A DNA stretch of 64,000 bases from Okamejei kenojei (GCA_035221665.1 CM069140.1:28148001-28212000); one strand, 5' to 3'; shown: positions 877 to 63,955, counted from the stretch's first letter. The notes: generated from the sequence alone by a model not told the origin. Program-made: numbers and translations.

Positions 877-1280
877 AACCCATTTGGTATTTTGTAGACT
901 TCAAGCAGATCACCTCCAATTTTCTTCTCTAAAGTGAAAAGCTTCAAACTATCAACTCTTTCCAGATAACTGTAATCGTCTGGAACAAGCATATAAAATG
1001 TACACTATTCCAGTATTTTAATGTCCCTTTTAAGGCCATGGAAACAAAAGTGCTCCAAGTGCAATGATTCAGAACATTGTTAGCTGCTGATCATGGTTTG
1101 TTCACTTCCATCCCTAGATTTAAATAACGTAAAATGATATCTATTGATGCTGTAGTGTTGTGCTATTCGATTACCCCATCTACGACTTTTCTATTTCCTA
1201 TTTTTATGCTGAAACTTCTTAAAAGGGAAGGCAATTAACTGGTCCAGCCAATACATGAAAATATAATTTATATCCTCTAA

Positions 1281-1375
1281 GATAGGCACAAAATGCTGGT
1301 GTAACTCAGCGGGACAGGCAGTATCTCTGTGGAGAAGAAATGGGTGATGTTTCGGGTCAAGACCCATCTGCAGAC
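1281..1375 (-). mobile_element. Penelope-derived short repeat with degenerate hammerhead motif
   Basis: Similar to 58461-58557, which is attached to a GIY-YIG ORF. Confidence 0.75.
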
Positions 1376-2450: not shown

Positions 2451-4517
2451 CTAGTCCCATCTACCTGCACTCAGACCATACCCCTCCATTCCTTTCACGT
2501 CCATATACCTATCCACTTTACTTTTAAATGTTAAAATCGATCCTGCCTCCACCACTTCTGCTGGAAGCTCATTCCACACAGCCACCACCCTCTGAGTAAA
2601 GAAGTTCCCCCTCACGTTACCCCTAAACTTCTGTCCCTTAATTCTCATGTCGTGCCCTCTTGTTTGAATCTTCCCTACCCTCAATGGGAAAAACGTATCC
2701 ACGTCAACTCTGTCTATCCCTTTCACATTTTAAAGACCTCAATCAAGTCCCCCCTTAACCTTCTGCGCTCCAAAGAATAAAGACCCAACTTGTTCAACCT
2801 TTCTCTGTAACATAGTTGCTGGAACCCTGGCAACATTCTAGTAAATCTCCTCTGTACTCTCTCTATTTTGTTGACATCCTTCCTATAATTAGGCGACCAA
2901 AATTGTACACCATACTCCAGAATTGGTCTTACCAATGCCTTGTACAATTTTAACATTACTTCCGTACTCATATATTCAATGCTCTGATTTATAAAGGCCA
3001 GCACACCAAAGGCTTTCTTTACCACCCTATCTACATGCGATTCCACCTTCAGGGAACTATGCACAGTTATTCCTAGATCCCTCTGTTCCACAGCATTCCT
3101 CAATTCCCTACCATTTACCATGTACGTCCTATTTTGATTTGTCCTGCCAAGATGTACCACTTCACACTTAACAGCATTAAACTCCATCTGCCATCTTTCA
3201 GCCCACTTTTCCAAATGGCCCAAATCTCCCTGTAGACTTTGAAAATCTACTTCATTATCCACAACACCACCTATCTTAGTATCATCTGCATACTTACTTA
3301 TCCAATTTTCCACCCCATCATCCAGATCATTGATGTACATGACAAACAACAGTGGACCCAACACAGATCCCCGAGGCACCCCACTGGTCACCGGCTTCCA
3401 ACCTGACAAACAGCCATCCACCATTACTCTCTGACATCTCCCATTCAGCCACTGTTGAATCCATCTTGCTACTCCGCCATTAACACCCAAAGATTGAACC
3501 TTCTTAACCAACCTTCCATGGGGAACCTTGTCAAAGGCCTTACTGAAATCCATATAGACAACATCCACTGCTTTAACCCTCATCAATTTTTCCCTAGTTA
3601 CCGCTTCAAAAAATTCAAGAAGGTTTGTCAAACATGACCTTCCAGGCACAAATCCATGTTGACTGTTCCTGATCAGACCCTGTTTATCCAGATGCTTATA
3701 TATATTATCTCTAAGTATCCTTTCCATTAATTTGCCCACCACTGACGTCAAACTAATAGGTCTATAATTGCTAGGTTTATTCTTTGAACCCTTTTTAAAC
3801 AATGGAACAACATGCGCAGTACGCCAATCCTCCGACACTATTCCTGTTTCTAATGACATTTGAAATATTTCTGTCATAGCTCCTGCTATTTCTACACTAA
3901 CTTCCCTCAATGTCCTAGGGAATATCCTGTCAGGACCTGGAGACTTATCCACTTTTATATTTTTCAAAAGTGTCAGTACTTCCTCCTCTTTGAATCTCAT
4001 AGTTTCCATAGCTACCCTACTTTTTCCCCTTAACTCACAAAGTTCAATATCCTTTTTTTTTAAAGAAGGAACTGCAGATGCTGGAGAATCGAGGGTACAC
4101 AAAAAGCTGGAGAAACTCAGCGGGTGCAGCAGCATCTAAGGAGCGAAGGAGATAGGCGACGTTTCGGGTCGAGACCCTTCTTCAGATAAGTTCAATATCC
4201 TTCTCCTTGGTGAATACTGAAGAAAAGAAATTGTTCAATATCTCCCCCATCTCTTTTGGCTCTGCAGAGAGCTGTCCATTCTGGTTCTCTAATGGTCCAA
4301 TTTTATCCCTCGTTATCCTTTTGCTATTAATATAGTTGTAGAAACCCTTTGGGTTTGCTTTCACCTTTCTTGCCAAAGCAACCTCATATCTTCCTTTAGC
4401 CTTCCTAATTTCTTTCTTAAGATTCTTTTTACATTCTTTATACTCCTCTAGCACCTCATTTACTCCATGCCTCCTATAATTATTGTAGATATCTCTCTTT
4501 TTTCGAAACGTGTCCAA
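2451..4517 (-). pseudogene. CR1 ORF2 reverse transcriptase, disrupted
   Basis: KSPGPD, NYRPISLTS, QHGF, YMDFSKAFDKVPH, YINDL, KYADDTK motifs; split by the 4055-4187 insertion and a frameshift near 2723. Confidence 0.93.
4055..4187 (-). mobile_element. Penelope-derived hammerhead micro-insertion with A-tail
   Basis: 15-bp TSD AAGTTCAATATCCTT (4040-4054, 4188-4202); minus strand reads CTGAAGAAGGGTCTCGACCCGAAACGTC. Confidence 0.9.
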
Positions 4518-8515: not shown

Positions 8516-8987
8516 TAGGCGATTGTAAGATGGGACACAATTGCAACCATTTCCTGATCACATCGTGCTGCTTGAAAATTCAGCTGCATAATACTCTAAA
8601 GCAATGCCGCTGAAATGGTCATTCACATGTAAATAACAAATGGCAGTTGGTAAGTGCAGGACTCTCTGGAGCCTGTTTGCACAGATTGAATATATATATA
8701 GAGTAGGAAGGAACTGCTGATGCTAGTTTAAACTGAAGATAGACACAAAAAGCTTTTTGTGTCCATCTTTGAGATAAATAGAGCTCTATTTAACTGCTTT
8801 AACAGTGATTCCACAGTAAGTGATTTATGTGTTTTAAATGTTACAGGTGGCAAAGGCAAATTTGTGAATCAACGCTTGTATCAAAAGATTCTGTTCCCAC
8901 AGAGTTCACAGGGACGCATGTTCCTATCTCAATGCCTCCGAAGAGCGATTCCTCAGGTTACACATTACCAATATAGTTATCACGGAG

Positions 8988-9080
8988 GGTACACAAAAAG
9001 CTGGAGAAACTCAGCGGGTGCAGCAGCATCTAAGGAGCGAAGGAGATAGGCGACGTTTCGGGTCGAGACCCTTCTTCAGA
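8988..9080 (-). mobile_element. Penelope-derived hammerhead micro-insertion
   Basis: 15-bp TSD ATAGTTATCACGGAG (8973-8987, 9081-9095); identical to 4094-4186. Confidence 0.9.
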
Positions 9081-9222: not shown

Positions 9223-9907
9223 AGGGCCTGTCCCACTTACGTGTCCTTGGCACGCAAATTACGCGACCTCGTGGTCGCGTTGCGCCGCAACTGTCCCACG
9301 AAGGTCGCGCATGATTTCATGCGTACACACAGCCGTCTGGAGCGCGTGACGTCATTTGAAGATGGACGCAAAATGCCGGAGTAACTCAGCGGGACCGGCA
9401 GCATCTCTGGAGAGAAGCAATGGGTGATGTTTTGGGTCAAGACCCTTCTTCAGTCTGAAAGAAGGGTCTTGACCCGAAACGTCATCCATTCCTTCTCTCC
9501 AGAGATGCTGCCGGTCCAGCTGAGTTACTCCGGCATTTTGTGTCTATCTTCAATTTTCTTGGCCCCGCTCTGGGAGTAGAAGTGGGGGTGGATCCGGACC
9601 GCAATGGCCGTGAGCCCCAGGCTGAGCTCGGTGATCATTTGCTTGCTTCTGCTGCTGTTAGAGGTGAGACGTTGCGTCGCGCCAGGGTCTTGGGCCTGTC
9701 CAACTTTGGCCGTCAGTTCCGCGACAGGCCGTTGGCGCGCAAAGATTTTGTTCGCTACAAACATTTCGGAGTCGCGCACAACTACATTACCTCTCCACGA
9801 TTCTCAGTGGGAATAGCCCCGCGTGGCCATACGATGCCAGCGCGCCTCAACACAACCACGAGGTCGCGTCATTTCCGTGCCAAGGACACGTAAGTGGGAC
9901 AGGCCCT
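9223..9907. mobile_element. PIF/Harbinger-like MITE
   Basis: ~55-bp TIR starting AGGGCCTGTCCCACTTACGTGTCCTTGGCACG; TAA TSD (9220-9222, 9908-9910). Confidence 0.88.
9356..9553. repeat. Head-to-head Penelope hammerhead palindrome (~100-bp arms)
   Basis: Near-perfect inverted repeat centred on TTCAGTCTGAA. Confidence 0.9.
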
Positions 9908-10705: not shown

Positions 10706-10790
10706 CTAAAGAAAGGTCTCGACCCGAAACTTCACCCATTCCGGTCCCTGCTGCCTGTCCGCTGAGTTACTCCAGCATTTTGTGTCTATT
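10706..10790 (+). mobile_element. Penelope-derived hammerhead repeat, degenerate
   Basis: GGTCTCGACCCGAAAC...GCTGAGTTACTCCAGCATTTTGTGTCTAT. Confidence 0.75.
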
Positions 10791-10905
10791 TGCTGTATAA
10801 GCTCATCTTCCAACATCTTTAGGAGTCATGTGAAAAATTATATATGCTAAATGAATACAATGTGATTTCTTCATATAGTAGGATGGTACGTAGACGTTTG
10901 CCTTA

Positions 10906-13088: not shown

Positions 13089-14028
13089 TCACTCGGGGAT
13101 AAATGTTTCTTGGTGACCAGTACTTAACACTGTCTCTGCAAACGTAGCAGGAGCGGCCACAGGTTTATTATAAAACCGCTGGAATTGTAGCTTCACTGGC
13201 CCAGCCTGCTGTAGTGAGGATATGGTCCATGGGAACCTCCATGGTCCTCGCCGCTGATGTGGATGCAGCCCTAGTAGAATGGGATTTAAAGATATTAGTA
13301 TCAATACCTGCTGCATCCAATACCACCCTGAGCCACCTGGAGATCGTCTGCACCGTCACCCTGTGATGGGGTTTCTTATGGCTGATCAGCAGTCCTTTCT
13401 CCATTTTCCTGATGGTATGCGTCATTTTTATATAGTGACGTATGTAGGTGGCTATGCAGAGCCTCACATCAACGGGGTATGCTGGAAATATTAATTGCAG
13501 CCCTGTAGTCCCAGGTCTGTGCTGCTTGAGTAACTCATCAATAAAGAAAGTTACTCTCTCAGGGGTAGAGACCATGTTATCCAATTTTATCTTTTGCAAA
13601 GTCTGGACCTGCTGAGCCGATGTTAGCGCCATTAATATCACCATCTTCAGGGTGAGTTTATCCAACGGTAGTCCAATCATTGGCGACCAACTCCTGAGTA
13701 GGGTCAATACTATCCCTATGTCCCAGGTGATGTTGTATCGTGGTCGGGGAGCGTTCGAATTGAAGATACCCCTCATCAATTTGGACACGAGCTGGTGAGA
13801 TCCTACTCCTATACAGAGGTAGGATGACAGTTCACTCCTGGCACTGTTGATGGCGCTGTAGTTGAGGCCCTCATCATGATGCAGCCCCATGAGGAATTCC
13901 AGCACATGGGGAATCATGGCGGAGTCATACGTGATGTTAATCCGGCTGCAGTAGACGTCCCATTTCCTGATTTGGGTGAGGTACTGTCGTCTAGTGGATA
14001 CTCTGCACGATGCTGCAATGGTGTCCAT
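13089..14028 (-). pseudogene. DIRS tyrosine recombinase
   Basis: YSAINSARS, PRPRYNITWD, LMALTSAQQ (catalytic R lost), HSTRAASTS, AGW, then frameshift to FQRFYNK. Confidence 0.92.
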
Positions 14029-14066
14029 GGTCCTTGGTGTTAGTCCATATTGCAGGAGTGGCCTCT

Positions 14067-15995
14067 TCAGAACCTGCAGGCCAACAGGTTCAGGTGACTA
14101 TGGCACGGATGGTATTCCCCTGTAGTGCGGTTAGTCACCAAATCCGGGCAGCTGTTAATATGTGCCCATGGTTCTTTAATCATCTCAAGGACCACCGGAT
14201 ACCATGGTTGTGTAGGCCAGTCGGGTATTATTAAGATGCCTTTTGCAGAATCTGATTTTATTTTCTGCAACACCCGACTGATGAGGCAAAATAAAGGAAA
14301 TGCATAGAAAAACCATTTCCCCCAGTGCAGCGAGAAAGCGTCCATCACTACTGCCCCACGAGCTGGTTCCCAAGATACATATGTTGGTATCTGATGGTTC
14401 AATCTGGACGCAAAAAGGTTGATTTCTGGTGTTCCAAATTTGGCAATAATTTTAGCAAATATTTGGGGATTCAACATCCATTCAATGTTATCATTGAACA
14501 CACGTGACCTGGTGTCCGCCACTGTATTGAGCTTACCTGGAAGGTAGGTAGCTGATTTCCAAATATTTCTTTCTATGCACCAGAGTCAGATTGAGTTTGC
14601 CAATTCATCACAAGATATTGACTTGATACCACCCATATGATTTAAGTATGTCACCACAGTGGTGTTATCTATTTGAAGACGGACATGCGTATGACGTAAA
14701 TTCATGCAATAAGCTCGTAGTCCGTGAAATGCTCCTAGCATCTCCAAATAGTTTATCCCTTGTGATAATAGAAGGGTCGATTTGTGTAAATCCCATCTAC
14801 CGCCACAACTGGAAGTAGTGTCGATAGCTCCCCAGCCTTGGGCGCTTGCGTCGGTTTGTACCACGTCTGACGGGTTCGGTACAATAATGGGATTGAATAA
14901 GTCACGAATATTATCAATCCACCATTGTAGCTCAACTTTTGCCTTAATTGGCAGCTGCATAAGTCTATCAAAATGTCCAGCATTTGTTTTTAATGCTGAA
15001 AATTTTGTTCTTTGCAAATTTTGATAGTGTAGAGGGCCAAATCGTGCAGCTGGAAATGTAGCTACTAATTTCCCAATTACCTTAGCAGCATGTCTGATTG
15101 TTGGTTTCCTGGCGCAAACAAGGTTGTTACATGCTTCAATAACATCCATTACCTTGTTATCTGGGATGGTAACAATCATTTGATTGGTGTTAATTGTGAA
15201 CCCCAGATAGTCCATGAGCTGTGAAGGGTAGAACTTAGATTTGTCTGGATGGATGACAAACCCTAATTTTGGAAACAATGTCTTAGTAGCTGTTACTGCT
15301 AAATTGGTCGATTCCATGGTCTTCCCCACAATCAAGATGTCTTCTAAATATGCCATGACAATATGGTTTTGTTTCCTCAGGGATGCCAATACTGGTTTCA
15401 AAATTGTTGTAAATAACCTAGGGGCTGTTGTAAGCCCATTAGATAGGGCTCTATATTGCCATAGCTGATCCATCCAAACAAACTTCAAGAACTTTCGGTG
15501 ATGTTTCCGTATGGATACTGAATAGTATGCATCTTTTAAATCGATGCATGCCATAAAGCACCCTTTGGAAATCAGTGATTTAGCTGTTTCAAATGTGTCC
15601 ATTTTAAAATGGGTATATTTTACAAAAGTATTCAAATGGGTTAAATCAATAATAATCCGACATCCATCTTTTTTAGTTTTGGTAAAGATGTTGGATACGA
15701 ACTCAAGAGGTTCGTGCATCGTTTTCTCTATCATCCCTTTTGCATGTAGCCTCAAAATTTCCTCATGTCCTTCCGCTATTTCCTTATGGGAAAGTGCAAA
15801 TTTCCGGTCTGGTACATGTTGAGGCGGGGGAAGTTGTTCATTTATGAATTCAATTTCATACCCCCGAATACTTAGTAAAACAAACGAGTCTGAAGTTATA
15901 AAGCTCCATGCATCCCAGAATAAACGTAACCTCCCACCAACTTGTGAGGTTAAACATGCAGCACTTGCATGAGAACCAGCCCCCCTTACCTACAC
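14067..15995 (-). pseudogene. DIRS pol: RT - RNase H - adenine-methyltransferase-like domain
   Basis: One frame with TAG at 15990-15992 and TGA at 14586-14588; VGGRL, IDLKDAYY, AYLEDIL (YLDD mutated), TDASAQGWG, INYLEM, IDNTT, NLFASRLN, YAFPLF, PDWPTQPWYP. Confidence 0.93.
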
Positions 15996-15997
15996 GG

Positions 15998-17820
15998 TTA
16001 CCGGCGGGCCCTGATGTTCTGGATTTTGGTGCTCCGTTGTGTTGCTGGTTTATGGTGTTGGCGCATCTTCCACGCCGGTCGCTGTTGGCCCTGCCCTAAA
16101 AATTTATTTTGTTGTTGGGGTGCGGCCGGCGTGTAGATTCTTGCTGATCTTTCAGGTAGCCCCCGAGGTCTTAATATGGTGTTTGTCTGCGCGCTGCCGG
16201 CCTGCTGGAGGGAGGTGGTTTCATTAACCCGACTCCTCGTCCAGGTCCTTGACCTGTTTGGGCAGGTCCTCACCGAACAGCTGTCTCGGTGGTGGCGTTG
16301 CAGATGCCTTGCACAACCCCGCGAACTTGGGGTTGAGAGTCGGCTTGATGGAAAGTTTCCGGAAAGCGTTGATTCCGTATTGTGTGTTACACAATAACGC
16401 AAGAGCATCTTCCTGCTCCTCCGTCATCTCCGTGCCGTCAACCGATCTGGCAAAGGCAGTGATGCCCGACGTCAACAGTTTCAGGATTTTTTGTAGTTTG
16501 AGTTCCTGTGCCTTTATTCCTTGACTGATGTTGCCCCAGATGGGCGTGTTGACTGTCGGTACATTCAATGATACACAGTTGTTCGGGGGCTTGTATTTGT
16601 TCATAGTCTCGCTTAAGACATGATCCTGCAGCTGGTGTGTAGTGAGGTAGTCAATGCTAGCCGCTAGATTGGGCTGCAATGGCTGTCCTGAGTGCGTTGG
16701 TTGGGCAAATTTGGAAACCACATCCAGAAGTTCCTCTTGGGGTTTCTCAGGTGTTGCAGGTCCCTGCGCCATCCCTTCTTCCACGTCAGCCAGTTGCTGA
16801 CCCCTGGCACTCCCCACCGATGATGGGGACATGCTGGGTGGCCCATATGCATGTCTCCTGGAACTGGAGGACATCCGGTCCTACTGCTGGAGATTTAGCT
16901 CTAGGAGTCGCTCCATCAAGCGCTCCATGCGGGCCATGCGACCGCCGCCGCTATCTGCGGACAACAAGTCGACTTCCCAGGTTCTCCTGAACTACTGAGG
17001 CTTCTGCCATCGGCCCGCACCTCGTCGAGGTGATGTCTAGGGTGCCTAGGCAGGATGTCGCTGCCTGCCGCTCCAGCGGGGCTATGCGACTCCCGCGCGG
17101 ACATGCCGCTAGTCTGCGGTCTTCTGGACTGTGGCGGCCCGCCTGTCTGGAAAGACATGAGCGGTGTGGAGTCGGGTCCAGCCGCCGAAGCGGGGTTCAC
17201 CGACATCCGCACGGGCTTGCCGCCTGTCCTCCCCCGGGACAAAGGCGACGTTCGGTCACATCCAGCCGCTAATTGCGGGGTGCGGTGACCGAGATGATAT
17301 ACCGCCGGCCCGCGATCTGGCAGGCTCCCCCGGTGATGAGTCTGAGCCGGCCGCACCTGCGGGGCTCCCAGACTCAGGCCTCGATTCCTCACCGCGATCT
17401 GGTGGACTGCTCCAGTGGCAAGTTGGCGCCGGCCGCTGCAGCGGGGCTCTCCGACATTCGTGCGGTTCTTCCCCTAGTTCGCCCTCTGTTGACCTGAATA
17501 GTAAGGGAGACAGAACGTGCCGCAGAGCGGGTAACACGTTTGCGCACCTTTTTTCCACTAACCCTATGCTTAGGTGACAGTGGTAGGGAGTCAGGGTCTA
17601 CCCTACCCTGCTCCTGCGCGGTGCTCCTACCACTATCCGACTCCATGGATAGCCGTGGTGGAGAGTCGGGTCCTGGTAAAGTAGGGCTCCCCGACTTCCG
17701 CGTCCTGTTCCCGGCCCGACGAGCGGGTGCTGCCGTGGTAGCGGGCAGCTCCGGGGAATGCAGCCGCTGACTGCTGGCGGAAGTCCTGCGGCTGGAGGTA
17801 TTTTTCAAACTCCTTTCCAT
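15998..17820 (-). pseudogene. DIRS gag/ORF1, frameshifted, long repetitive N-terminus
   Basis: ATG at 17820; PPNNCVSLNVPTVNTPIW and QLFGEDL motifs; stop at 15998-16000 just before pol. Confidence 0.75.
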
Positions 17821-18024
17821 CGTCCCTGTGAACACAAAAATTATATTCCCAGGAACTAACCAACTCAAGGTTAGTTCCTCTTACCTGAGCGGTCCTTTTT
17901 GAAGGGCTGGTGGAGGAGCGCACTCCCCCCCCCCCCAGCCGTCAACTGTCAGCGACGATACGTCGCGCATGTGTGCTGGCGGGGTCTTCACGAAATCACT
18001 TACGTGACTCCGAAATGAAATAAT

Positions 18025-18806: not shown

Positions 18807-18900
18807 CTGAAGAATGGTCTTGACCCGAAATATAATCTATACCTTTTCTCCAGAGATGCTGCCTGACTCGCTGAGTTAATCTAGCACTTTGTGTCTATTT
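18807..18900 (+). mobile_element. Penelope-derived hammerhead repeat, degenerate
   Basis: CTGAAGAATGGTCTTGACCCGAAA plus conserved downstream block. Confidence 0.75.
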
Positions 18901-19044
18901 TCCCTTCACCCATCTGCCCAAGCCCACTATCCCCCTTCCTTTCCTATGTTCCTTTCCACCCATAAACCTCTCTCTGCCTTTACATTTCACTCCTCTTTCA
19001 AATCTGCTCTACTTATCTACATGCATTTTTCTTCTTAACTTTTT

Positions 19045-26993: not shown

Positions 26994-27087
26994 TTCAGTC
27001 TGAAAAAGGGTCTCGGCCCGAAACGTCACCCATTCCTTCTCTCCAGAGATGCTGCCTGTCCCGCTGAGTTACTCCAGCATTTTGTGT
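26994..27087 (+). mobile_element. Penelope-derived hammerhead micro-insertion
   Basis: CTGAAAAAGGGTCTCGGCCCGAAACGTC; imperfect TSD CTATCCYATTA. Confidence 0.85.
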
Positions 27088-28843: not shown

Positions 28844-28967
28844 GACACAAAATACTTGTCGAGACCCGAAACGTTACCCATTCCTTCTCTCCAGAGATTA
28901 TGCCTGTCCCACTGAGTGACTCCAGCATTTTGTGTCTACCTTCGGTTTAAACCAGCATCTGGCACAC
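28844..28967 (+). mobile_element. Penelope-derived insertion (collapsed inverted pair)
   Basis: 15-bp TSD AATGATCAAGGATTA (28829-28843, 28968-28982). Confidence 0.85.
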
Positions 28968-29242: not shown

Positions 29243-29460
29243 AGATGGACACAAAAAGTTGGAGTAACTCAGTGTGACAGGCAGCATCTCTGGAGAAGGA
29301 ATGGGTGACGTTTCAGGTCCAGACCCTTCTTCAGATGAAGGGTCTCGACCCAAATCGTCACCCATTCCTTCCCTCCAGAGATGCTGCCTGTCCTGCGGAG
29401 TTACTCCAGCTTTTTGTGTCTATCTTCGGTTTAAACCAGCATCTGCATTTCCTTCCCACA
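29243..29460. mobile_element. Head-to-head Penelope hammerhead palindrome
   Basis: Inverted arms 29243-29425 centred on CTTCAGATGAAG. Confidence 0.85.
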
Positions 29461-30467: not shown

Positions 30468-30808
30468 ATGGAAGGCCCTGCTGCCACAAGCAGTGACAGG
30501 TAGTAGATAGGACTGTTCGGTGACAGTTGTAACTTTGTCGGCACCAAACGTAGCGATAATTGTGTACTGCCTTTGTGAGGTTTGCCATATGATTTTACCG
30601 GGTTGCATGAAAAACAAAGCATTTCTGTACCTAGGTACGTATGGCAATAAAGTATCATTGAATCACTAAGGAAATAAGGAGACAAAACCATTCCTTCAAG
30701 GTTTTATTAAACTCTTCTTCCTTTTAAGACATTGTAGATTATGAAGAAAGGTTGTTATGGGATGCAAGGGAAGAGGAAATATTAAAATGATGACATTAGG
30801 ATGCAAGG

Positions 30809-30990
30809 ATCTATGGAGCGAAGGAACAGGTGACGTTTTGGGTCGAGACCCTTCTTCAAGAATGCTGAAGAAGTGTCTCGACTCGAAACGTCACTCATTC
30901 CTTCGCTCCATAGATGCTGCCTCACCCGCTGAGTTTCTCCAGCATTCTTGTCTACCGTCGATTTTTCCAGCATCTGCAGTTCTTTCTTAA
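30809..30990. mobile_element. Head-to-head Penelope hammerhead palindrome
   Basis: Inverted arms 30809-30915. Confidence 0.85.
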
Positions 30991-31009
30991 ACATTAGTTT
31001 AATCTCTCT

Positions 31010-31268
31010 TTCCGCTGAGACCGTTCCCTCCGCAACTCCCTGGTTAACTCTGTTTGCTTTGTTGTTACCTTCTCCTAGATAACAATGATCTATTCTACAT
31101 TTTCCTTGATCTCCACCACCTTCTCACACCTTACATGTCCTTATCTCTGTATCTCCCCCTCCCCTGACTCTCAGTCTGAAGAAGGGTCTTGATCCGAAAC
31201 GTCACCCATTCCTTCGCTTCAGAGATGCTGCCTGTCCCGCTGAGTTATCCCAGCATTTTGTGTCTACT
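31010..31268 (+). mobile_element. Penelope fragment (ORF piece fused to 3' pLTR with hammerhead)
   Basis: FR*DRSLRNSLV codons, then CTGAAGAAGGGTCTTGATCCGAAACGTC at ~31176. Confidence 0.8.
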
Positions 31269-31280
31269 TTAGGAATACTT

Positions 31281-34969: not shown

Positions 34970-36245
34970 ACCATTGCAGCTGGCTATGGCATTGTCACTA
35001 CATGCAGACTTTCAATGCAACCCATGCACCAAATGTTCATGAATATAACTACAAGTAATTGTAAATGCTTAACTTACATTCACTGTGAAACAGCCTGGGG
35101 TGAAGGTGTCCCTGTGTTACTTTTCAATGTGGATCTGACAGCAAGCACATTAGCAGTCTTTTTTTCCCCTCTAAATCAAAAGCATTTGAACCCTTGCAAG
35201 AATATAAATAGAGATAGAAATAAACACCATTTAAAAATGCAAACTTGATTCAGGATTAGCACACTGTCCGTGACTCTAGGGATTTTGCACTTTAGTCCAT
35301 TTTAGCACAAGGGAAACACAGAGAATGCAGATACTGGAATTGGGAAGCAACATACATACATTTGCTGAAGGAACTCAGTGTATTAAGAAGCATTTAGGGG
35401 TGGAAAGGAATGGTCAATGTTTTGGGTTGAAAACCTGAATCAGTCTTTCACACCCAAACATGCTGCTCGACCCACTGAGTTCCTCCAGCAGATCTTCTGC
35501 TGCTCCATTTTACCACACAATGTCAGGGGCACCATTTTTTTAAAGTAATACCTTAAAACAAATCCTGCCTGCCTGTTCAGGTAGACATTGCATTCAATAG
35601 GTGCCTTAAATCCTTCCATTCGTAATTCAGATATAAAGATTTTAAACACAGAAATACAAATAATGGCTCAATATTGTCTGCAACTACAGATTTGTTGCGC
35701 TAAAAATTGTCTTTCCATCAATACTTGCAACTTGCAGCAGTATTATTAAGTGATATAATTCCAAAAACAACATGGAAATACTCTCAAGAACTGGCAAGGG
35801 AATCTTGTTGTGCGTGTAACAGGTGGGAGTTGATGGCTCCATCTTGAATTATTAAGCTGCAGTCCAAATGTAGACATGTTACTTGGGAGTTGTACAGCTT
35901 AGGTTCACAAGATTGATTCCTGAGATGACAGGACTGTCCAATAAAGGCAGACTGAGTACGATTGGCTTATGACCACTAGGTTATTTAGAAAATGTAAAGA
36001 TCAATGAATCAAAGTTTAGAACATTCTTAGAGAAATCTGCAAGGATGTGATTAAGCAAGAGGGCACAGAAATGATTCACGGGAACGATGGTGGGGCAGGA
36101 GTGCTTAGGTTATAAGGAGAGATCAGATAGGTTGGGACTGATTTCATGGGAATGATCGGCTGAGGGGCAATCTTCTTGAGGTTTATACAATTATGAGGGT
36201 CATAGATAGAATAAATTATTTTTCCCTAGGGAATCCAAAAGGTCA

Positions 36246-61800: not shown

Positions 61801-63442
61801 CAGTGCCCTCCATAATGTTTGGGACAAAGACCCATCATTTATTTATTTGCCTCTGTACTCCACAATTTGAGATTTGTAATAGAAAAAAAAATCACATGTG
61901 GTTAAAGTGCACATTGTCAGATTTTACTAAAGCCCATTATACATTTTGGTTTCACCATGTGTTTATACATAGTCCTTCTCCCCACTTCAGGGCGCCATAA
62001 TGTTTGGGACACAGCAAAGTAATGTAAATGAAAGTAGTCATGTTTAGTATTTTGTTGCATACCCTTTGCATGCAATGACTGCTTGAAGTCTACGATTCAT
62101 GGACATCACCAGTTGCTGGGTGTCTTCTCTGGTGATGCTCTGCCAGGCCTGTATTGCAGCCATCCTTAGCTTATGCTTGTTTTGAGGGCTAGTCCCCTTC
62201 AGTTGTCTCTTCAGCATATAAAAGTCATGCACAATTGGGTTCAGATCGAGTGATTGACTTGATCACTCTAGAATTGACCATTTTTAGCTTTGAAAAACTC
62301 CTTTGTTGCTTTAGCAGTATGTTTGGAATCATTGTCTTGCTGTAAAATTAACTGCCGGCCAATGAGTTTTGAAGCATTTGTTTGAACTTGAACAGATAGG
62401 ATGTGTCTATACACTTCAGAATTCATTATGCTACTACCATCAGCAGTTGTATCATCAATGAAGATAAGTGAGCCAGTACCTTCAGCAGCCATACATGCCC
62501 AGACCATAACACCCCACCACTGTGTTTCACAGATGAGGTAGTATGCATTGGATCTTGGGCAGTTCCTTCTCTCCTCCATACTTTGCTCTTGCCATCACTC
62601 TGATATAAGTTAATCTTCGTCTCATCCGTCCACAAGACCTTTTTCCAGAACTGTGGTTGCTCTTTTAAGTACTTCTTGGCAAATTGTAACCTGGCCATCC
62701 TATTTTTGCGACTAACCAGTGGTTTGCATCTTGCAGTGCAGCCTCTGTATTTCTGTTCATGTAGGCTTCTGTGGACAGTGGTCATTGATAAATCCACACC
62801 TGACTCCTGAAGAGTGTTTCTGATCTGTCGGACAGGTGCTTGGGGATTTTTCTTTATTATAGGGAGAATTCTTCTGTCATCAGCTGTGGAGGTCTTCCTT
62901 GGCCTGCCAGTCCCTTTGTGATTAGTAAGCTGACCAGTTCTCTCTTTCTTCTTAATGATGCCCGAACAGTTGATTATGGTAAGCCTAAGGTTTGGCTAAT
63001 ATCTCTAATATTTGGCTAACAGTTTTATTCTTGTTTCTCAGTCTCATAATGGCTTCTTTGACTTTCATTGGCACAACTTTGGTCCTCATGTTGATAAATA
63101 GCAATAAAAGTTTCCAAAGGTGATAGAAATACTGGAGGAAAGACTAGGTGCTGAGAGCTCTCTTATACCTGCATTAAGGAGGCAACTAAACACACCTGAG
63201 CAACTACAAGCCATGTGTCCCAAACATTATGGTGCCCTGAAATGGGGGGGGGGGGGTGGACTATGTATAAACACAGCTGTAATTCCTACATGGTGAAACC
63301 AAAATGTATAAAGAAGGCCTTTAATAAAATCTGACAATGTGCACTTTAACCAGATTTTTTCTATAACAAATCTCAAATTGTGTAGTACAGAGGCAAATAA
63401 ATAAATGATGGGTCTTTGTCCCAAACATTATGGAGGGCACTG
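61801..63442 (-). mobile_element. Full-length Tc1-like transposon (IR/DR)
   Basis: TA TSD, CAGTG termini, long TIRs with outer and inner CATAATGTTTGGGACA direct repeats. Confidence 0.96.
62044..63089 (-). pseudogene. Tc1 DD34E transposase, frameshifted
   Basis: MRTKVVPMKVKE, WTDETKI, VMVWACM, QQDNDSKH, SLDLNPIV (E lost), KGYATKY*. Confidence 0.92.
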
Positions 63443-63875
63443 TAACTCTCGAGGCTGAGAGGAGACCTAATAGTAGTTTCTAATATTTTGGGACAAATAG
63501 ATAGGGTAGACGGTCAGAATCCGTTTTCCTCCCAGGCGAAATAGTGAAATACACGAGGGCATAGTTCTGAGGTGAGAGAAAGAAAATTTGAAAGAGATGC
63601 ACATGGTAAATTTCTCTCACAGAGAGAATGGTGTCTGGAACGCATTGTTAGGGGTGGTAGTGGAAGTAGATATGGTAAAGGTGTTAGTGGCTTTTAGATA
63701 GGCACATGAATATGTTGGAAATGGAAGGATATAGAGCATGCGCAGGCAGAAGAGTTTAATTTGGCGTCATACTCAGTGCAGTCATTGTGGACCACAGAGC
63801 CTGTTTCCATATTGAACGGTTCTATGATATGATATGAATAAGTTTGTGATATGAATAAGTTTATTGGCCAAGCAT

Positions 63876-63955
63876 CGACACGAAACGTCACCCATTCCTT
63901 CTCTTCAGAGATGCTGCCTGTCCCGCTGAGTTACTCCAGCATTTTCTGACTATCT
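63876..63955 (+). mobile_element. Penelope-derived repeat fragment
   Basis: CGAAACGTCACCCATTCCTTCTC...GCTGAGTTACTCCAGC. Confidence 0.78.

Follow-up and report, generated by a model that had tools for sequence, protein, structure and literature searches.

A variant of Penelope-like insertion architecture in Okamejei kenojei: short end modules with a 5' edge beside the hammerhead core

The window analysed here, a 64,000-nucleotide stretch of the Okamejei kenojei genome (GCA_035221665.1 CM069140.1:28148001-28212000), contains long copies of a Penelope-like element (PLE) and many short copies of its end module. Using the copy at 4097-4187 as query, we found 32 matches in the window, which were resolved into 22 loci totalling 2477 bp, that is, one per 2.9 kb or 3.9% of the window, a count that leaves out an older related family at 35364-35490. 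These loci consist of 10 short singles, four long copies retaining upstream sequence and eight head-to-head pairs. The end-module copies measure ~95 or ~130 bp and belong to at least three sequence subfamilies, in which the same 5' edge recurs. A pattern scan of metagenome, viral and prokaryote collections returned no loci. Throughout, +1 is the T of TCTGA (58556 in the long copy, minus strand), the preceding base is -1, and the hammerhead C17 is +29. The long copies and their parts are:

58467-59073, minus strand: 5'-truncated long copy with a GIY-YIG fragment, a pyrimidine-rich UTR and the hammerhead unit; no target-site duplication (TSD) found
58791-59073, minus strand: C-terminal GIY-YIG endonuclease fragment with Neptune-type relatives, 89% to a Leucoraja erinacea protein
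58528-58555, minus strand: minimal hammerhead core (CUGAAGA, extra A, 5-bp stem II, GAAA, palindromic ACGU, C17 at 58528, +29), by the descriptor in the available text of PMC4209133
58554-58560, minus strand: positions -4 to +3, matching an initiator and a YAG splice acceptor, with the A at -2 at 58558; a genome-wide junction cluster lies at 58557-58559
31000-31270, plus strand: long copy retaining native upstream UTR plus a short remnant of the ORF linker
41415-41775, minus strand: long copy retaining native upstream UTR; lacks the 3' hairpin by deletion
60591-60828, minus strand: long copy retaining native upstream UTR; lacks stem II to C17 by deletion

Several of these copies are rearranged. 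In the plus-strand copy (30992-31270), which lies directly behind the tail of the pair at 30806, the ORF-linker remnant is fused to the UTR by an internal deletion. The deletion of stem II through C17 at 60655-60656 (minus strand) has its junction at the hammerhead cleavage position, and the 3' hairpin is similarly missing at 41422-41429. Hammerhead-unit families that are older and more divergent, likewise with inverted arrangements, lie at 35364-35490 and ~57110-57230.

The long copy at 58467 identifies the source of the module. The intervals 4097-4186, 8991-9080 and 58467-58556 are identical at 90 of 90 positions, confirming the identity over about 90 bp near 4097, 8991 and 58467 reported in a preliminary description of the sequence. 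That description had also traced the unit to a Penelope pseudo-LTR (pLTR), and indeed the 58467 copy carries upstream UTR and a GIY-YIG fragment on the same strand, with true homology confined to 58794-59073, less than the full 127-aa frame. The fragment displays two cysteines between GIY and YIG (IRCSRC..IYIGET), as in canonical EN+ PLEs. Its Pfam GIY-YIG match (E 0.0067) falls under the curated cut-off, while its relatives reach E 5e-46 with RT upstream. There are 36 matches among 208 candidate proteins, the best in Leucoraja erinacea (89%), followed by shark and ray proteins. Among nine relatives examined, eight have a CX2-5CxxC linker before the endonuclease and seven an RT YxDD motif upstream, both regions being missing from the 5'-truncated window copy. 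According to the available text of PMC8557442, this linker marks Neptune/Nematis and is missing in Penelope/Poseidon. The source element is thus likely to be Neptune-type, by proxy from the linker in its relatives rather than from an RT tree. In a read-through protein of the zebra shark, the C-terminal end is a translation of the same core, following a serine/proline-rich stretch, and the ORF-core arrangement is therefore common to both. A hammerhead-bearing pLTR, an optional 30-40 nt tail and inverted copies, which also belong to canonical EN+ PLEs, are present here.

Old, decayed Penelope-like ORF pieces at 57440-58030 and 59074-59110 (minus strand) flank the young 58467-59073 copy on the same strand, which is likely nested in an older Penelope-like element. 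A candidate splice donor within the GIY-YIG codons was dropped because the base that creates it differs in 99% of the run depth at 59040. Elsewhere, the window holds DIRS-like remains at 13168-17880 (minus strand), with an RT frame at 14586-15989 (RVT_1 E 1e-17) and a tyrosine-recombinase-like frame at 13168-14097 showing a weak Phage_int_SAM_4 match, Tc1/mariner transposase fragments at 62426-62995 (HTH_Tnp_Tc3_2 E 3e-19) and 37505-37918 (minus strand), and an assembly gap of 271 N at ~51115-51385.

All elements of the minimal type I core descriptor of the hammerhead (CUGANGA, GAAA, NUH, G10.1-C11.1 and a palindromic remnant of helix III) are found at 58467, 4097, 8991 and 31175, while the core is mutated at 26994, 59593 and 41480 and missing at 28844 and 60360. 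Helix I has two contiguous pairs in all three native contexts and 0-2 in five micro-copies, short of the 4-5 bp of the descriptor. The earlier designation as a minimal type I hammerhead with a palindromic stem III thus holds for the core but not for helix I, which is only 2 bp. No longer partner for helix I was found in the 150-250 nt upstream, where the best duplexes (-3.3 to -8.1 kcal/mol) lie far from the core. At gathering level, Rfam gave no match across the window, nor was any hammerhead recovered in 58400-58700 at E<=10. In the literature, minimal motifs are inactive as monomers and cleave weakly as dimers (PMC4209133, available text); one of nine Xenopus dimers cut (bioRxiv 10.64898/2026.07.22.740005, available text); and cleavage by the hammerhead of PAc, the Poseidon element of Anolis carolinensis, is described as needing protein in the available part of PMC11167929. 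Judging from sequence, the ribozyme is probably inactive here, and the explanation that we favor below would not need its activity.

The single copies define the 5' edge. Those with annotated ends are:

4055-4187, minus strand: tailed family A micro-copy; 5' end at +1 plus one extra base, 3' end an 8-nt A run
4056-4096, minus strand: ~40-nt tail, a partial repeat of the 3' hairpin arm
8988-9080, minus strand: micro-copy without tail, family A; starts at +1, TSD overlap 3 nt
26994-27087, plus strand: micro-copy without tail, family B; starts at about -4/-5, overlap 5 nt, imperfect 11-bp TSD at 26983-26993/27088-27098
59593-59688, minus strand: micro-copy without tail, family B; match from -3 plus 4 extra bases, overlap 7 nt
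1277-1375, minus strand: older single copy; starts at -1, no TSD found
10706-10791, plus strand: older single copy; starts at +2, no TSD found
18807-18901, plus strand: older single copy; starts at +2, no TSD found
39008-39138, plus strand: single tailed copy; starts at -4 to -7, no TSD found
63875-63955, plus strand: single copy, exception to the fixed edge; start inside stem II

Eight of the 14 single-orientation loci start between -7 and +2, two start at ~+16 and +66, and the other four are the long copies. If truncation were uniform over 170 nt, such clustering would have P ~6e-7, so that a uniform spread of breakpoints, which had been named beforehand as refuting a fixed edge, is very unlikely; four of the 14 loci have edges without TSDs that are set by homology only. 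The TSD-bounded singles all lie at the edge (4/4, P 2e-5) and all begin 1-8 nt before CUGA, as had been proposed. Equally, the boundary is distinct from the GUC cleavage site, as first described: it lies 28-32 nt upstream of it, and GUC cleavage as the cause of the edge is ruled out by that distance. Two of the six inserts listed in the preliminary description, at 28844-28967 and 60360-60522, are inverted head-to-head pairs with neither this edge nor a CUGANGA core, and the core is mutated at 26994 and 59593. The sequence at -4 to +3 is YYAGTCT in all four long copies, after a tract of 73-93% pyrimidine, and we take it to fit the initiator consensus (YYANWYY, A at -2) and a 3' splice site equally well.

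The head-to-head pairs are:

28844-28967: pair whose short inverted arm and tailed arm meet in stem II, without CUGANGA core
60360-60522: pair without hammerhead core, short arm plus tailed arm
9358-9551: pair centred exactly on T(+1), arms with common private variants, no TSD found
29244-29460: pair centred on +1, short arm plus tailed arm
30806-30993: pair joined at +2/+3, truncated arm plus tailed arm
8705-8770: pair centred on an AGCT palindrome at ~+78
56495-56612: pair joined near stem II
39882-40010: rearranged inverted pair, sense arm starting at -2 and preceded by G

Three of the eight centres fall on the near-palindrome at +1 and others on stem II or AGCT. In five pairs the arms end at different 3' sites.

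TSDs were scored against the same search run on random 110-bp spans, which reached a score of at least 13 in 1 of 148 cases and at least 8 in 15 of 148; all TSD-anchored statistics concern the 64-kb window. Five inserts have perfect duplications:

4040-4054/4188-4202: 15 bp, perfect, flanking the 4055 insert
8973-8987/9081-9095: 15 bp, perfect, flanking the 8988 insert
28829-28843/28968-28982: 15 bp, perfect, flanking the 28844 pair
59577-59592/59689-59704: 16 bp, perfect, flanking the 59593 insert
60347-60359/60523-60535: 13 bp, perfect, flanking the 60360 pair

Six inserts had initially been credited with clear TSDs, the one at 26994 being noted as imperfect, and for these five (13-16 bp) this is correct. 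The sixth, at 26994, is flanked by 11 bp with one mismatch; since this score is common among random spans (matched by 15 of 148), its support comes from exact adjacency to the junctions. None of the other 17 of the 23 loci searched had a convincing TSD, including with 1.5 kb of upstream sequence added. The duplication at 4055 is independently confirmed: it repeats the KDIEL codons of a LINE reading frame, which runs on for 470 aa and includes an RT domain.

The 3' ends are bimodal. Among 29 arms, 17 end at +88 to +100, eight at +115 to +131 (one of these, at 18807, being a gap-extended alignment that by eye stops near +95) and four elsewhere, and the ends are therefore not simply variable, as had been thought. 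Counted from the start of stem II, the two clusters lie at 83-88 nt and 116-122 nt, and the interval between them corresponds to the known optional 30-40 nt tail. When six copies were folded as single strands, they did not outperform shuffles (z -1.14 to +1.06), and an alignment fold gave one 4-bp stem with zero compensatory changes; given these results, we claim no conserved 3' structure. A reversed orientation, in which the fixed edge would be the priming end, was rejected since the long copies have a common GTGT/tail end and differ upstream.

At the short 3' site, the insert overlaps its target by 3, 5 and 7 nt in the single copies and by 2 and 2 nt in inverted arms, the overlap being at the short arm in both TSD-bounded pairs. 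The sum of 19 nt over five junctions compares with 1.7 expected (P 2e-8), placing the originally reported microhomology, at the short end, beyond chance; excluding the imperfect TSD leaves 14 nt (P 2e-6), and the two primary ends with perfect TSDs alone give 10 nt (P 1e-5). With a free junction offset, the chance per site is ~0.06-0.08 for 3 nt, 0.003-0.006 for 5 nt and 0.0002-0.0005 for 7 nt. The tail ends show little scorable overlap. Thus, of the overlaps listed previously, those of 3, 5 and 7 nt are real, but that at 4055 amounts to two A only. At 8988 the overlapping bases are those of family A, at 59593 and 26994 those of family B; in a tiny sample, this favors pairing over a fixed cut motif, but the overlap could instead reflect a sequence preference of the endonuclease.

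To look beyond the window, four of 24 listed public runs, from three studies, were mapped on 58440-59180, as contigs throughout; X1 and X4, which come from one study, are probably DNA, X5 is RNA, and the kind of X21 is unstated. Loose ends after -1, -2 and -3 (58557, 58558 and 58559) number 535, 446 and 809 contigs in X21, while those after -2 and -3 number 75 and 171 in X1 and 74 and 167 in X4, all counted among the 24 rows listed of 1521, with +1 and +2 outside the rows listed. These ends are long (median 68-248 nt) and of low agreement (0.31-0.41), i.e. the flanks are heterogeneous, which excludes a common upstream exon. The -1 and -2 classes resemble unique AT-rich flanks, whereas the -3 class has a purine-rich consensus and includes subfamilies that diverge upstream there. 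Summed depth in X21 is 13-22 million over the unit versus 1-5 million upstream, a step that stems partly from sharing of the unit among subfamilies and is not a copy number. The 5' edge is therefore real beyond the window, as seen in three public runs. Separately, several X21 joints at 58520-58559 return from -2 to about +32 to +37 with a single C in between, which suggests that the core has been duplicated elsewhere in the genome, as short tandem or mirrored repeats.

The source element, the TSDs, the two 3' clusters, the 5' edge cluster and the 3-7 nt target overlap at the short end are established. To explain them together, we propose, with a probability of about 0.52, that the short copies are TSD-flanked solo pLTR ends, with or without tail, of a Neptune-type PLE, whose reverse transcription starts internally at one of two sites and likely runs off the 5' end of an RNA beginning at the initiator-like A at -2. 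Endonuclease nicks staggered by 13-16 nt would prime the cDNA, at the short site (+92 to +97) with the help of target base pairing and at the tail-end site largely without it. An RNA starting at -2 would place both initiation sites only 95-130 nt from its 5' end, and the run-off product would then have a fixed length. Long copies would require a read-through RNA or a downstream repeat. In head-to-head pairs, either both nicks would prime, with the two cDNAs meeting and annealing at short palindromes, or one cDNA would fold back. The ribozyme would not make the edge by cutting and is probably inactive in these copies, most of which would be dead-on-arrival by-products.

Three causes of the edge had been suggested beforehand (a transcription start, an RT stop or a template switch), and a transcription start fits best. 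Run-off accounts for singles and pairs together, and the X21 counts for -2 (446) and -1 (535) argue for it, being too even for -2 to represent chance extension from -1. A C directly follows 58558 on the cDNA strand in five of the 12 inserted-letter rows listed (of 246) and in none of the four native upstream copies. This hints at terminal addition or cap copying, the geometry of the joint being ambiguous. Several observations count against run-off at -2. The only RNA run contains an unspliced 484-nt contig through the site, support from the runs comes from contigs and not reads, and both young family-A micro-copies begin at +1, just after YAG, and not at -2. Other subfamilies and inverted pairs inflate the -3 peak, and the extra C is also seen at 58550, 58553 and 58557. 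The initiator match is weak (probability of YYA. before TCT 0.07 in the window). In the available texts, initiation by PAc involves no homology to the cut DNA, in contrast to the short site here, and the Drosophila virilis start lies upstream by 46 nt plus a 75-nt intron (PMC2377424) that ends at helix I (PMC4209133). A TATA-like TATAT, present upstream in two of the four long copies and near -29 in just one, was set aside as too weak.

The run-off reading has a bolder form, which we regard as possible if rather doubtful. The skate Neptune may integrate its own 'strong-stop' cDNA, with an initiator lying two bases upstream of a 5' hammerhead that is deliberately crippled, 5'-proximal initiation, run-off at the capped end and a dimeric enzyme joining two cDNAs head to head. 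If true, this would explain at once the pLTRs with their tails, the inverted pLTRs and why partial tandems are needed, and run-off products would be among the commonest repeats of the genome.

A somewhat unlikely alternative is that the template extends further upstream and that the enzyme stalls on entering the pyrimidine tract, the cDNA end then folding back or annealing at the near-palindrome CAG-T-CTG; trimming of the hairpin would give singles near +1 and extension would give pairs. The upstream sequence is indeed 73-93% pyrimidine, three of the eight inverted pairs are centred on +1 and others on different palindromes, the copies at 26994 and 39008 begin with 5-6 nt mirroring the core, the arms of 9358/9551 have common private variants, and palindromic inverted junctions in rotifers are read as self-priming in the available text of PMC3846280. 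However, the palindrome has merely 3-4 bp per arm around a 1-nt centre, and mirrored bases are missing from most singles. The palindrome of stem II, which is stronger and met first by the enzyme, is seldom the edge, accounting for only two of eight inverted junctions and one of 14 single edges. Two primings would fit the pairs as well, since arms end at different 3' sites in five of eight and the short arm overlaps the target in both TSD-bounded ones.

We consider it distinctly unlikely that the edge is a 3' splice site, the templates then being either splicing intermediates or spliced RNAs whose first exon is very short or heterogeneous. All four long copies show YAG after a pyrimidine tract and 77-114 AG-free nt, but this AG-free length is close to the composition expectation. 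Both young micro-copies start at +1, and the D. virilis intron ends at helix I (PMC4209133, available text); on the other hand, PLEs transpose with introns retained, as described in the available parts of PMC4209133 and PMC2377424. The heterogeneous loose ends include a large -2 class and lack a common upstream exon, a splice-type joint at 58556 is absent among the 15 listed of 169 joints, the RNA contig (484 nt) is unspliced across the site, and the TSDs lie 0-7 nt from +1. Searching proteins for exonised units yielded four unnamed predicted ORFs, which are uninformative on splicing.

The preliminary description had viewed these copies as a SINE-like unit. It is quite improbable that they form a true SINE-like family, in which truncated masters, transcribed by themselves and possibly from an antisense polymerase III promoter, pass on the edge. 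Non-autonomous PLE derivatives do exist, by the available text of PMC8557442 and bioRxiv 10.64898/2026.07.22.740005. The X21 depth of 13-22 million over the unit against 1-5 million upstream would be in keeping with such a family, again not as a copy number. Both strands of the unit were scored with A-box and B-box motifs that we take to represent polymerase III promoters. Antisense matches, noted post hoc, reach 8/9 for each box. At 59593-59690 (plus strand, antisense) these lie ~50 nt apart, a result equalled in 2 of 2000 shuffles; for the young family the number is 11 of 2000. Sense-strand matches (A-box 5/9, B-box 6/9) were equalled by 1572 of 2000 shuffles, with no tRNA; no tRNA-like gene was found, and what matches the B-box is stem II read in antisense. 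At least three subfamilies show the same edge, with differences of several bases between copies, two young micro-copies show 0/89 differences from the ORF-attached long copy, and the long copies, with common 3' ends and varying 5' ends, fix the sense orientation. The SINE-like label is thus not supported, since neither a micro-copy lineage nor a sense-strand promoter was found in this one window, and repeated by-products of autonomous elements are simpler than a master micro-element. Three identical copies with intact CpGs, one of them interrupting a LINE with a 470-aa open RT frame, at most suggest present mobility; identity and intact CpGs are marks of youth, not of current activity.

Finally, a retrozyme route, with units made by ribozyme cleavage and circular or tandem RNA, is very improbable indeed: the core is intact in eight copies (by a motif scan for CUGANGA spacing plus GAAAC, one match being unrelated), same-orientation core repeats appear as joints in the public runs, and retrozymes are said to stem from pLTRs in the available text of bioRxiv 10.64898/2026.07.22.740005, but the edge lies 28-32 nt upstream of C17, none of the 22 loci is circularly permuted or forms a head-to-tail tandem hammerhead array, and helix I has 2 bp natively and 0-1 bp in three micro-copies.

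Much of this architecture has precedents, compared here with the available texts. EN+ PLEs are described with a pLTR, an optional 30-40 bp tail and inverted pLTRs (PMC3846280, PMC8557442). Like the copies here, their pLTRs are TSD-flanked, have a tail on one end only, occur as solo pLTRs and are frequently 5'-truncated; they also occur head-to-head with junction palindromes, and an initiator-like motif has been noted in one pLTR. Rotifer pLTRs measure 181-218 bp with TSDs of 8-10 bp (PMC3846280), against ~95-130 bp and 13-16 bp here, and the density of one per 2.9 kb and the 5' edge pinned to the hammerhead set the skate copies apart from the pLTRs described in those texts. For PAc, PMC11167929 places the beginning of the ORF at stem II and the onset of reverse transcription 111-118 nt further in, with the tail enclosed by two start sites; the enzyme extends both DNA strands, and insertion is normal with mutant ribozymes. 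The two internal starts bounding the tail are matched here at nearly the same distance from stem II (116-122 nt). PAc differs in that it starts without homology to the cut DNA, versus an overlap of 2-7 nt at the short site here, in its clade (relatives of the skate element have the Neptune-type linker), and in that the available text reports no fixed 5' edge for it. The metazoan PLE hammerheads of PMC4209133, mostly single dispersed motifs ascribed to truncated PLEs, similarly have CUGANGA, an extra base before stem II, G10.1-C11.1, GAAA and a palindromic 15.2-16.2, but a helix I of 4-5 bp versus 2 bp here (as in D. virilis), where no Rfam model matches. Non-LTR retrozymes (bioRxiv 10.64898/2026.07.22.740005) are also short, non-coding, pLTR-related hammerheads found as dispersed monomers, including in a cartilaginous fish; they differ in forming tandem units with at least two hammerheads, whereas units here are single or head-to-head with fixed ends.

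pLTR hammerheads, dispersed single motifs, tails, solo and inverted pLTRs, and internal initiation are thus already in print. A hammerhead-fixed 5' edge and target overlap at the short site were not found in the literature searched, outside of which lay Repbase, Dfam and most subscription papers. What the window contains is a real, quantifiable variant of a known Penelope-like insertion architecture, with one unexplained feature. For the questions of how PLEs make pseudo-LTRs and inverted ends, and of what the hammerhead does, a genome with one end module per 3 kb provides a very large natural record of cDNA start and stop sites. If the edge is an RNA start, these insertions would map the promoter and tie internal initiation in vitro to genomic architecture; if it is not, they would still mark a clean stall or switch site.
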